Origin: an uncultured Eubacteriales bacterium
GTDB lineage: Bacteria > Bacillota > Clostridia > Oscillospirales > CAG-272
Length of the DNA stretch: 64,000 nucleotides
NCBI GenBank assembly: GCA_905187695.1
Contig: CAJJIY010000001.1
Location: 74,035 to 138,034 of the forward strand
Reading direction: 5' to 3'
This document shows, piece after piece, positions 61,732 to 64,000 of this stretch. Within the stretch, counting starts at the first letter, position 1. Each line of letters starts with the position of its first letter. The notes beneath the pieces are model-generated. The model saw only the letters and a list, made by a program, of their open reading frames with translations. It made no database searches and was not told the origin of the DNA. The position numbers were made by a program, and so were the translations under genes.

Positions 61732-62373
61732 ATGAAAATTGCCCCTTCGCTTCTGGCCGCCGATTTTTCGGCGCTGGCCGATTCCGTCTCTAAAATCGAA
61801 TCGTCCGCCGATTTTCTCCATCTGGATGTCATGGACGGACATTTTGTGCCGAACATCTCTTTTGGCCCCGGCGTCATTACCGCGCTCCGGCCGCTTTCCA
61901 AGTTGTTTTTTGATGTTCATCTGATGATCGAGCACCCGGAACGCTATCTTTCCGCCTTCCGAAAGGCAGGGGCGGACGGCATCACGGTACATCTGGAAAC
62001 GCTGCGTGACCCCGCCGCGACCCTTGATGAGATCAGGACTTTGGGCGCCGCACCGGCACTGGCAATCTCCCCCGAAACGCCTGTTGAAGCGTTACTCCCC
62101 TTTCTGCCGCTTTGCAACATGGTGCTGGTGATGACGGTGCACCCCGGTTTCGGCGGGCAAGCGCTCATACCGCAGGCTCTTGCCAAAGCGGCTGTTTTAA
62201 AAGAAAAGATCTCTCAACTGGGGCTCAATTGTCTTGTTGAGGCGGATGGCGGCATCAAACCCGCCAACCTTGCCACGGTCCGCGCGGCCGGTGTGGATGT
62301 GGCCGGTGCAGGGTCGGCCGGTTTCGGTGCCGCCGACCCTGCGGCTGTCATTGCAGAAATGAAAAAAATCTGA
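61732..62373 (+). CDS. rpe: ribulose-phosphate 3-epimerase
   Basis: 213 aa. HLDVMDGHFVPN and MTVHPGFGGQ signatures. Confidence 0.93.
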   Translation: MKIAPSLLAADFSALADSVSKIESSADFLHLDVMDGHFVPNISFGPGVITALRPLSKLFFDVHLMIEHPERYLSAFRKAGADGITVHLETLRDPAATLDEIRTLGAAPALAISPETPVEALLPFLPLCNMVLVMTVHPGFGGQALIPQALAKAAVLKEKISQLGLNCLVEADGGIKPANLATVRAAGVDVAGAGSAGFGAADPAAVIAEMKKI

Positions 62374-62388
62374 AAAATCCCTTTAGAG

Positions 62389-62427
62389 AATCCGGGCTTC
62401 CGCTCTTTGCAGAAGCCCGGATTTTTT
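62389..62427 (+). terminator. rho-independent terminator after rpe
   Basis: AATCCGGGCTTC-11 nt-GAAGCCCGGATT followed by TTTTT. Confidence 0.85.
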
Positions 62428-62445
62428 GCTTTCCGCTTACAAAAA

Positions 62446-62476
62446 GTGTACACCTATTATCTCAATAGGTATACAC
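62446..62476. repeat. left 31-bp lox-like site (imperfect 12-bp palindromic arms around a 7-bp asymmetric core TATCTCA)
   Basis: GTGTACACCTAT-TATCTCA-ATAGGTATACAC. Positions 62447-62462 are the exact reverse complement of 62588-62603. Confidence 0.8.
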
Positions 62477-62486
62477 AATAAAAATG

Positions 62487-62521
62487 AAAACAGGAAAATA
62501 AAACCAAAAAACAGGAAAATA
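62487..62521 (+). repeat. two direct copies of AAAACAGGAAAATA spaced 21 bp apart, upstream of the -35
   Basis: Exact 14-mer at 62487-62500 and 62508-62521. Confidence 0.7.
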
Positions 62522-62534
62522 TTGTGTAAATATA

Positions 62535-62563
62535 TTGATTTTTCTATATTGTTGTGATATAAT
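62535..62563 (+). promoter_or_regulatory. near-consensus sigma-A promoter directed at the LRR lipoprotein gene, located between the two lox-like sites
   Basis: TTGATT-17 nt-TATAAT with an extended -10 TGa. Confidence 0.78.
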
Positions 62564-62573
62564 AAGAAGAAAA

Positions 62574-62604
62574 GTGTACGCCTATCAAGATAATAGGTGT
62601 ACAG
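62574..62604. repeat. right 31-bp lox-like site (core CAAGATA, i.e. inverted relative to the left site)
   Basis: GTGTACGCCTAT-CAAGATA-ATAGGTGTACAG. Ends 4 nt before the RBS GGAGG (62608-62612). Confidence 0.8.
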
Positions 62605-62617
62605 TATGGAGGACGTT

Positions 62618-64000
62618 ATGAAGGCTAAAAAATTCAGTTTCCATGCGGGTTTGCTGTGCATAGCCGCGCTTTTTGTCACGCTGCTTTTGCTTCTTTCTTC
62701 CTGCGGCGAAGACGACAAGAAGCCGACAGAGACAGTGGATGACAAAAATTTCACTTATGCTGTTGAAAACGGACAGGCGACCGTTGCTTCGTATACCCCA
62801 TCCGGTGAAATTTCGCCCAAACTGATCATTCCGTCCACATTGGGCGGCTATCCCGTTGTCCGAATCGGCGAAGGTTCCTTTTCCGGTTTGAAAAACATAA
62901 AAGAAATTGTTCTGCCGGACAGCGTCACAGATATCGGCAAAGAGGCATTCAAGGACTGCTCTGACCTTACAAGCATCACCATCGGAAACGGCGTTAGTAA
63001 CATCTATTCTTATGCATTCAACGGTTGCATCAACCTTAAAAACATTTATATAACCGATATAGCGGCATGGTGCAAGATCTCAGGGTTGGATAACCTTATG
63101 CAAATAAAAGGTTTATTCGATGGCGGTGTCTACATTGACCGCACGGCATATAGCCTGTATTTGAATAACGAACTCATCACAAATCTCGTGATTCCAGATG
63201 GCGTCACCAGCATTGGCTGGGGTACATTTAATGGTTGCACAGGACTCACAAGCGTCACGATTCCGGACAGCGTCACCAACATCGATTCTTATGCGTTCTC
63301 CGGTTGTACAGGGCTTACAAGCATCACTATCGGGAACAGCGTCACCAGCATCGGAGATTCTGCTTTCTACGGTTGCACAAGCCTTGCAAGCATTACAATC
63401 CCGAACAGCGTCGCCAGCATTGGAAATGATGTGTTCTACCATTGCACAGGGCTTACAAGCATCACGATTCCAGACAGCGTCGCCAGCATTGGAAATGATG
63501 TGTTCTACCATTGCACAGGGCTTACAAGCATCACGATTCCAGACAGCGTCACCAGCATCGGAGATGATGCGTTCAGATATTGCTCAGGACTCACAAGCGT
63601 CACCATTGGAAACGGTGTCACCAGCATTGGCTGGGGTGCATTTAAGGGTTGCACAGGACTCACAAGCGTCACGATTCCGGACAGCGTCACCCACATCGGA
63701 GCTGATGCGTTCGAAAATTGCACAGGACTCACAAGCGTCACGATTCCGGACAGCGTCACCTACATCGGAACTGATGCGTTCGAAAATTGCACAGAACTCA
63801 CAAGCATCACTCTCGGAAACGGCGTTATCAACATCGGTTCTTTTGCGTTCTCCGGTTGCACGGGACTTACAAGCATCACAATCCCGGACAGCGTCACCAG
63901 CATCGGAGATTCTGCGTTTTACCGTTGCACAGGCCTCAAAATCATCTATTATACCGGTACGGAAGCACAATGGGCGAAAATCAGCAAAGAGTATTATTCC
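62618..64000 (+). CDS. BspA-type leucine-rich-repeat (LRR_5-like) surface lipoprotein, 3'-truncated by the window edge
   Basis: Open frame from ATG 62618 to the window end (not in the supplied ORF track because no stop is reached). Signal peptide MKAKKFSFHAGLLCIAALFVTLLLLLSS|C with lipobox. At least 14 tandem 23-aa units of the type TSITIPDSVTSIGDxAFxGCTGL. Confidence 0.88.
   Translation, partial: MKAKKFSFHAGLLCIAALFVTLLLLLSSCGEDDKKPTETVDDKNFTYAVENGQATVASYTPSGEISPKLIIPSTLGGYPVVRIGEGSFSGLKNIKEIVLPDSVTDIGKEAFKDCSDLTSITIGNGVSNIYSYAFNGCINLKNIYITDIAAWCKISGLDNLMQIKGLFDGGVYIDRTAYSLYLNNELITNLVIPDGVTSIGWGTFNGCTGLTSVTIPDSVTNIDSYAFSGCTGLTSITIGNSVTSIGDSAFYGCTSLASITIPNSVASIGNDVFYHCTGLTSITIPDSVASIGNDVFYHCTGLTSITIPDSVTSIGDDAFRYCSGLTSVTIGNGVTSIGWGAFKGCTGLTSVTIPDSVTHIGADAFENCTGLTSVTIPDSVTYIGTDAFENCTELTSITLGNGVINIGSFAFSGCTGLTSITIPDSVTSIGDSAFYRCTGLKIIYYTGTEAQWAKISKEYYS
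63405..63542 (+). repeat. perfect 69-bp tandem duplication (two identical LRR units) inside the LRR gene
   Basis: 63405-63473 is identical to 63474-63542. Both encode (P)NSVASIGNDVFYHCTGLTSITIP(D). Confidence 0.9.

Follow-up and report, generated by a model that had tools for sequence, protein, structure and literature searches.

A probable invertible promoter upstream of a strain-variable BspA-type lipoprotein gene in an uncultured human-gut Clostridia bacterium

The DNA analyzed here (a stretch of 64 kb, hereafter the window) ends inside the gene of a BspA-type LRR lipoprotein, and just upstream of that gene two short, lox-like sites bracket a promoter-containing segment (Table 1). The original prediction, made from the letters of the DNA, took this arrangement for an invertible promoter (inverton) in its ON orientation, and thereby raised the question of whether the segment is in fact found in both orientations and, if so, what kind of enzyme might flip it. 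A GC-rich hairpin behind rpe (62389-62423, followed by a T-run) has a calculated folding energy of -29.8 kcal/mol (z = -5.9), in agreement with the strong terminator claimed for this position, and appears to shield the switch from upstream transcription. Past the terminator, the intergenic stretch is 28% G+C, as compared to 52% G+C in the whole window. On the downstream side, the RBS and start codon of the lipoprotein gene were found where they had been placed (62608 and 62618, respectively); the ORF beginning at this ATG matches Pfam LRR_5 (BspA type) with an E-value of 2.7e-126, and its signal peptide carries a lipobox (LLSSC).

Table 1. Features of the rpe-LRR region, in window coordinates.
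Feature	Position	Strand	Description or basis
rpe (ribulose-phosphate 3-epimerase)	61732-62373	+	ORF; PF00834 on homologues; upstream housekeeping anchor of the locus
rpe intrinsic terminator	62389-62429	+	GC-rich hairpin and T-run; inverted repeat; RNA fold
Site A (left)	62446-62476		Outer arm 62446-62457, core TATCTCA 62458-62464, inner arm 62465-62476
Minimal invertible segment	62465-62585		Inner arm A, 97-bp interior and inner arm B; 121 bp
Two AAAACAGGAAAATA copies	62487-62521	+	21 bp apart; direct repeat upstream of the -35
Predicted promoter TTGATT-17-TATAAT	62535-62563	+	Upstream TG (extended -10); consensus match
Site B (right)	62574-62604		Inner arm 62574-62585, core CAAGATA 62586-62592, outer arm 62593-62604
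RBS (GGAGG)	62608-62612	+	Read from sequence
BspA-type LRR lipoprotein gene, 5′ part	62618-64000	+	Pfam LRR_5; runs past the window end

Both 31-bp sites, each with 12-bp arms and a 7-bp core, proved to be present exactly where they had been described. Site A reads GTGTACACCTAT-TATCTCA-ATAGGTATACAC and site B reads GTGTACGCCTAT-CAAGATA-ATAGGTGTACAG. When the sites were realigned and the matches recounted, the figures given earlier were reproduced: 26/31 positions match when the sites are treated as inverted copies, including a perfect 16-bp run (TGTACACCTATTATCT), and 23/31 match when they are treated as direct copies; the two cores are oppositely oriented. An inverted-repeat search returned the pair as 30 nt that are 87% complementary, with arms 97 nt apart. 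The motif GTGTACRCCTAT-N7-ATAGGTRTACA occurs in only two places in the window, namely sites A and B (0 expected from 100 shuffles), and even the short form CTAT-N7-ATAG is found just twice in the 64 kb. The sites fit the core-type layout of tyrosine recombinases, in which inverted arms (12 bp here, 13 bp in most members of the site family described below) surround an asymmetric core, in this case of 7 bp.

A promoter scan recovered the near-consensus promoter that had been reported to face the lipoprotein gene, and only weak promoter matches were found on the opposite strand. As the predicted promoter points at the LRR gene, the window represents the ON orientation. The two AAAACAGGAAAATA repeats are possibly an UP-like or accessory-protein element, and a degenerate third half-site, TATTGTGTAAATATATTGA, overlaps the -35 (window 62520-62538); the repeats or this half-site could be an accessory-protein site or a leftover of the module's origin.

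The orthologous loci, whose comparison the original prediction had proposed, were retrieved through Rpe variants 98-99% identical to that of the window and the members of their clusters (the exact window Rpe gave no match), and metagenome contigs were also scanned with the left flank plus site A. According to their record names, the orthologous contigs derive from human gut metagenomes. The rpe-LRR junction was covered in 51 of the 58 sequences, which formed the informative set, and orientation was called from consensus assemblies of different samples. Twenty-seven of the 51 assemblies, the window included, were in the ON orientation, eight independent assemblies were OFF (L028, L041, L042, L066, L073, L076, L077, and L080), and 16 had a single site and lacked the 128-bp unit. 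In L028, the window's 121-bp segment is present as its reverse complement without a mismatch (121/121) between collinear flanks; the blastn alignment of window positions 62447-62603 is to the minus strand (98.7%), and that of both flanks is to the plus strand. An OFF allele of the L028 type was present in five samples, one of which came from the same study as a near-identical ON contig (L001). Altogether, four allele lineages were found in both orientations. Besides the L028 type, L041 (OFF) is the flip of L027 (ON) with 2/124 mismatches and a 3-bp insertion common to both, L042 (OFF) is the flip of L040 (ON) with 1/121 mismatches and a shared G-to-A change in the promoter, and L066 (OFF) carries the flipped interior and inner-arm variants of the L002 type (ON).

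When ON and OFF alleles were compared, the outer arms stayed in place while the inner arms traveled with the segment. For example, the CCTTT at the inner position of site B in L040 reappears as AAAGG at the inner position of site A in L042. All but one of the 35 two-site alleles have identical outer arms (the exception, L045, has a 10-bp deletion), and an inner-arm variant only 3 nt from the core moves with the segment; the crossover therefore falls somewhere between the outer arm and ~2 nt into the inner arm. The flipped alleles with fixed outer arms thus indicate that the segment inverts, with boundaries inside the 31-bp sites, and that it has done so repeatedly and recently. Assemblers might mis-orient a short segment that lies between 30-bp inverted repeats, and some OFF contigs are in fact small and thinly covered (2 kb at ~4x for L028). 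However, OFF alleles were also found in contigs of 245 kb and 635 kb produced by different pipelines (L041, L042) and in Logan, ENA, and NCBI records alike, so that mis-assembly is not credible; furthermore, the k-mers used are longer than the perfect repeat, and the inner-arm variants swap sides coherently. We place the probability of an assembly artifact close to nil. As the segment is found both ways round in public assemblies, the reading of the segment as an ON-oriented inverton, with a predicted promoter that faces the gene, has stood up, and the rpe-LRR segment is very probably an invertible promoter that switches a strain-variable, BspA-type surface lipoprotein in an uncultured human-gut Clostridia species.

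Several ON alleles differ in other respects. L046 has TTG in place of the ATG start codon, L047 carries a 10-bp duplication in the interior of the segment, and the deletion in L045 takes out most of the outer arm of site A, which probably locks that allele ON. The lipoprotein itself is hugely strain-variable (window 62618-64000, L002 5888-8881, L008 5926-6339, L028, L040, and L071), ranging from 119 to 1185 residues with an identical signal peptide throughout; the full-length ortholog in L002 is 997 aa, and some alleles have an additional N-terminal region of repeated HWHAASCEHT motifs. In the nearest other species (L049 4001-5914; GCA_964323965.1), whose Rpe is 76% identical, a convergent ftsZ directly follows rpe and the junction contains neither the switch nor the LRR gene. 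The direct adjacency of rpe and ftsZ in that species implies that the switch and LRR gene form an accessory cassette, inserted between two housekeeping genes. In one further contig (L078 1087-2064), an Rpe identical to variant P0246 is followed by a FecR-domain gene in place of the switch, reflecting either another genomic context or a chimeric, low-coverage contig.

The cores of the window's two sites are complementary at only 5/7 positions. Among the orthologous alleles, cores complementary at all seven positions were found in 8/8 OFF alleles versus 3/27 ON alleles (Fisher's exact p = 7e-6, the sequences being non-independent), and this difference may reflect cores that are homogenized whenever the segment flips or, alternatively, alleles that have long stayed, or are locked, in the ON state. 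Every core variant at the locus is a CpG-type transition of TATCTCG/CGAGATA. Heterology in the overlap region normally lowers exchange by tyrosine recombinases, and with cores complementary at 5/7 positions the window strain may therefore switch slowly or be effectively locked ON. In 4/4 ON/OFF pairs, the OFF cores are one of the two products expected when strand exchange across a mismatched overlap is followed by heteroduplex segregation; for instance, TATCTCA/CAAGATA of the window corresponds to TATCTCA/TGAGATA in L028. The OFF core pairs may therefore arise by heteroduplex segregation at replication, although independent CpG transitions or inter-strain recombination could also produce such a pattern.

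The same core mismatch, which is seen in the window and in 24/27 ON alleles, would be expected of a relic or locked switch, once invertible in the lineage but no longer flipping at a useful rate in the window strain, in which the ON/OFF differences are old, fixed strain polymorphisms and the cores have diverged or the recombinase is absent from the window strain. Such a reading also draws on the lack of any recombinase found near the locus and on the existence of damaged alleles, i.e., the 10-bp deletion of the A outer arm in L045 and the 16 assemblies that lack the segment. In contrast, the OFF allele found in five samples has no substitution relative to the window segment, while ON alleles differ from one another at several positions, so that the flip must be recent relative to allele divergence. 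Moreover, four lineages each occur in both orientations, and all four OFF allele types carry the core pair that exchange and heteroduplex segregation would be expected to yield. We consider a relic to be unlikely and an invertible promoter to be the better account of the locus.

The 16 single-site assemblies fall into two forms, both without the promoter segment, that differ in core orientation only. In the first (n = 5; L009, L010, L012, L013, and L052) the site reads GTGTACACCTAT-TGAGATA-ATAGGTGTACAG, and in the second (n = 11; L053-L062 and L072) it reads GTGTACACCTAT-TATCTCA-ATAGGTGTACAG. Judged from their sequences, these forms would fit two different deletions between directly repeated arms, one involving the left-hand and one the right-hand arms, by which the switch would have been lost recurrently; either the recombinase or replication slippage might have been the agent. 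The TGAGATA form creates TGAGATAAT, which resembles an extended -10. A miniature transposon, or an insertion with target duplication, was considered as the origin of the two-site allele, but no duplication geometry fits; as single-site cores occur in either orientation, and deletion between directly repeated arms explains both, a transposon origin was rejected. Integration and excision of a small circle was rejected as well, because the cores are inverted and not direct. A scan of viral contigs for the site gave 0 matches, and thus no sign of a phage origin.

We scanned one genome per species (185,579 species) with the pattern TGTAYRCCTAT-N7-ATAGGYRTACA. Twelve loci were found, 11 of them in uncultured Clostridia MAGs; the twelfth is a single, unpaired palindrome in a Micavibrio MAG and is probably due to chance. 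With slightly relaxed arms, nearly all of these loci become pairs. A search for pairs of TAT-N7-ATA, in which the N7 was required to be exactly inverse-complementary, was then applied to the window and to L015-L038, which comprise the scan loci and the recombinase-linked loci, and yielded 24 pairs with sites 128-190 bp apart, versus 0 in 50 shuffles. All 19 related sequences scanned for promoters had one strong promoter per pair, of the design TTGnnn-17-(TG)n-TATAAT. The arms are common to the switches, while the cores vary, with nine different cores seen (e.g., CAATATA, TATTATG, TGTTATA, TAGTGTA, TCATATA, TACCATA, TAGTATA, and TACTTTA). The arm sequence was found in no relevant paper text, and the repeat family is apparently undescribed.

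Individual loci of this family showed further arrangements. A switch with window-like architecture (L019 3271-3437) lies upstream of genes for an N6_N4 DNA methylase and a ResIII helicase, which makes this locus a candidate phase-variable methylation system resembling type III restriction-modification. In L023, a switch is flanked on one side by a divergent gene for a secreted protein and on the other by a Flg_new/LRR_5 lipoprotein gene. Three sites are present in L020 (1682-1900), where one right-hand site is faced by two left-hand ones that share a core and are separated by 33 bp, and overlapping palindromes (AATAGGTGTACACCTAT...ATAGGTGTACACCTATT) occur in L024 (663-701).

As to the enzyme, no tyrosine recombinase homolog was detected by tblastn in the 64-kb window, in accordance with what had been noted before, and none was found in the orthologous loci that were fetched. 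At six other loci (L015, L016, L017, L021, L025, and L026), pairs of the site family lie directly downstream of a gene for a 309-aa tyrosine recombinase, the switches beginning ~20-150 bp past its stop codon. The description of the sites as lox-like was thus borne out, in that the same arms occur in other Clostridia MAGs as pairs with inverted cores, often adjoining a tyrosine recombinase gene. The 309-aa protein consists of Phage_int_SAM_3 and Phage_integrase domains (Pfam). Four full-length copies are 62-99% identical, and the catalytic residues of tyrosine recombinases that were checked in these linked enzymes of other genomes (Arg, His-x-x-Arg, His, and Tyr) are invariant, as R149, H254-x-x-R257, H280, and Y290. 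Among solved structures, the Tn1549 integrase is the closest relative (6en0, E = 3e-16). No NCBIfam model matched the protein at cut-off, the tyrosine-type DNA invertase models scoring 17-23 bits against a required ~220. Among the candidates scored, 6,323 clusters (90% identity) belong to the family at E <= 1e-50; the best 120 of the 6,323 share at least 73% identity, and nearly every one has 309 residues. The genes adjoining the site family are all of the tyrosine type, which sets the family apart from serine invertases of the Hin/Gin/Mpi type.

The switch adjoining one recombinase, P0124, also occurs in both orientations: L029-L032 and L038 have it pointing downstream, and L033 has it the other way round. 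Another four P0124 contigs (L034-L037) end 24-28 nt past the recombinase stop codon, no more than 4 nt from the last base shared by the two orientations, and at the rpe-LRR locus one contig (L050) stops right past the core of site A. Contig ends inside or at the end of the sites are as expected if a sample held both orientations and the assembly graph branched. Recombinase genes are lacking near the window's switch and its orthologs, and L019, L020, L022, and L023 have no 309-aa recombinase gene nearby; action in trans is therefore implied.

The linked switches (L015 668-1529, L016 3854-4699, L017 5788-6642, L021 867-1712, L025 4936-5782, and L026 1232-1380) occur in tandem pairs at 5/6 recombinase-linked loci, L026 having a single one. 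In 6/6 of these loci, the promoter of the first switch is antisense to the recombinase gene, being directed back toward its 3′ end; the second switch, examined in L016 and L025, is oriented away from a downstream lipoprotein or secreted-protein gene. Between the tandem switches lies a conserved 155-aa gene (MLGEIYRVSFIGHR...), for which no Pfam or NCBIfam match was obtained.

Since each site is palindromic, the first hypothesis considered was that a dimeric transcription factor uses the two sites as operators, looping or blocking the promoter, with any inversion being incidental. Perfectly palindromic arms of 12-13 bp around a less conserved center are typical of operators, and the sites are 128 bp apart from center to center, one of them overlapping the transcript start and 5′ UTR. 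Operators, however, have no need of the exactly inverse-complementary cores seen in 24 pairs elsewhere, nor would they account for a segment that is physically inverted in eight assemblies. The genes with which the sites are associated encode tyrosine recombinases and no regulator, and a genome-wide pattern of single palindromes, which the original prediction had named as speaking against a switch, is not what the scan of 185,579 species shows: no dispersed regulon of single sites turned up there. The operator hypothesis was dropped on the flipped alleles and the recombinase linkage, and we regard it as highly improbable, although binding of the recombinase could repress transcription as a side effect.

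Taken as a whole, these results suggest the following model for inversion of the promoter segment. An AT-rich segment of ~121-128 bp would carry one strong, predicted sigma-70-type promoter between the two 31-bp sites. Two recombinase monomers would bind the 12-13-bp arms of each palindromic site, and strand exchange across the asymmetric 7-bp cores, which point opposite ways, would flip the segment. The sites are most likely acted on by a tyrosine recombinase whose gene lies elsewhere in the genome, the best candidate being a member of the conserved 309-aa Phage_int_SAM_3 and Phage_integrase family. In the ON state, the transcript would start at about position 62570 and read through site B into the LRR lipoprotein gene; in this 5′ UTR the site B RNA is predicted to fold as a hairpin of -14.9 kcal/mol without a U-tail. 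In the OFF state, the promoter would read toward rpe. On the + strand of the OFF allele, site A is then followed by UUUUCUUCUU, which supplies a U-tract (-18.7 kcal/mol), and the leftward transcript is predicted to form a hairpin of -24 kcal/mol followed by UUUUU. Termination at these OFF-state hairpins would stop any remaining read-through toward the LRR gene as well as antisense transcripts running into rpe, and the folds are consistent with orientation-dependent terminators. A search of Rfam gave nothing near the gathering score in 62300-62750, so no known RNA element accounts for the hairpins.

The private cores would be expected to stop different switches from recombining with one another. 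We tentatively propose, as a possibility that goes well beyond the rpe-LRR locus, that the very large and highly conserved 309-aa family of gut Clostridia constitutes a natural "multiplexed lox" system with shared 12-13-bp arms, private 7-bp cores, homogenization of the cores with each flip, and palindromic arms that double as orientation-dependent terminators. If this were true, one enzyme would serve many promoter switches, some adjoining its own gene and others scattered before surface-protein and restriction-modification genes, and each flip would re-homogenize both cores by heteroduplex segregation.

BspA-type surface proteins are generally taken to mediate adhesion and to be exposed to the host. 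The type of mechanism described here is already established and its principle is not new; the value of the analysis therefore lies in cataloguing and in the private cores, core homogenization, and recurrent loss. A searchable definition of the switches was gained: arms of the form CCTAT(T)-N5/7-(A)ATAGG, cores that are inverse to each other, a spacing of 128-190 bp, and one TTGnnn-17-TGnTATAAT promoter. Together with the candidate recombinase family, this definition would make it possible to annotate such switches in MAGs of Clostridia, a group whose invertons have been mapped far less than those of Bacteroidota.

In function, the window switch is an invertible promoter of the sort known from fimS, the invertons of Bacteroides, and the RecV switches of C. 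difficile. Among these systems, fimS of E. coli is a promoter segment inverted by the tyrosine recombinases FimB and FimE, which sets expression of a surface structure ON or OFF; it is 314 bp long with 9-bp repeats, has adjacent recombinase genes, and requires host bending proteins. The window switch is similar in that the segment carries the promoter. It differs in its length of ~121-128 bp, in having no recombinase gene nearby, and in the candidate 309-aa recombinase, which belongs to another family and on which the invertase models score low (see above).

The RecV switches of C. difficile (cwpV, flgB, cmrRST, and pdcB), several of which are served by one tyrosine recombinase encoded elsewhere (PMC2784873, PMC5903667, PMC7446863), resemble the window switch in being short, invertible regulatory segments upstream of surface or cell-envelope genes in Clostridia. 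The orientation-dependent terminator of cwpV has a counterpart in the window segment that is predicted by folds. Unlike cwpV and flgB, where the switch lies downstream of the promoter, the window segment carries its promoter, and its repeats are full palindromic sites with 12-13-bp arms of conserved sequence and a 7-bp core. The likeness to the RecV regulon is a functional one. Like the gut invertons detected by PhaseFinder-type methods, the window switch is intergenic and near a surface-protein gene; one survey reports a statistical link of Clostridia invertons with tyrosine recombinases encoded nearby, including the pair of inverton group 139 and invertase group 35 (PMC11892184). Our motif scan returned uncultured MAGs only, and the cultured species that the survey names were not among its matches; this difference in hosts suggests that the window repeats belong to a family different from inverton group 139.

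In Cre/loxP and FLP/FRT, 13-bp inverted arms surround an asymmetric spacer that sets the orientation of the site, and inverted spacers lead to inversion; heterospecific lox variants have the same arms and different spacers and do not recombine with one another. The window-family sites are built alike, from inverted arms and an asymmetric, orienting core, with one core per switch. Their spacer measures 7 bp, or 5 bp if the arms are counted as 13 bp, and not 8 bp, and the solved structure closest to the linked recombinase is the Tn1549 integrase (6en0) rather than Cre or FLP. By analogy with the lox variants, the private cores would insulate the individual switches from one another.
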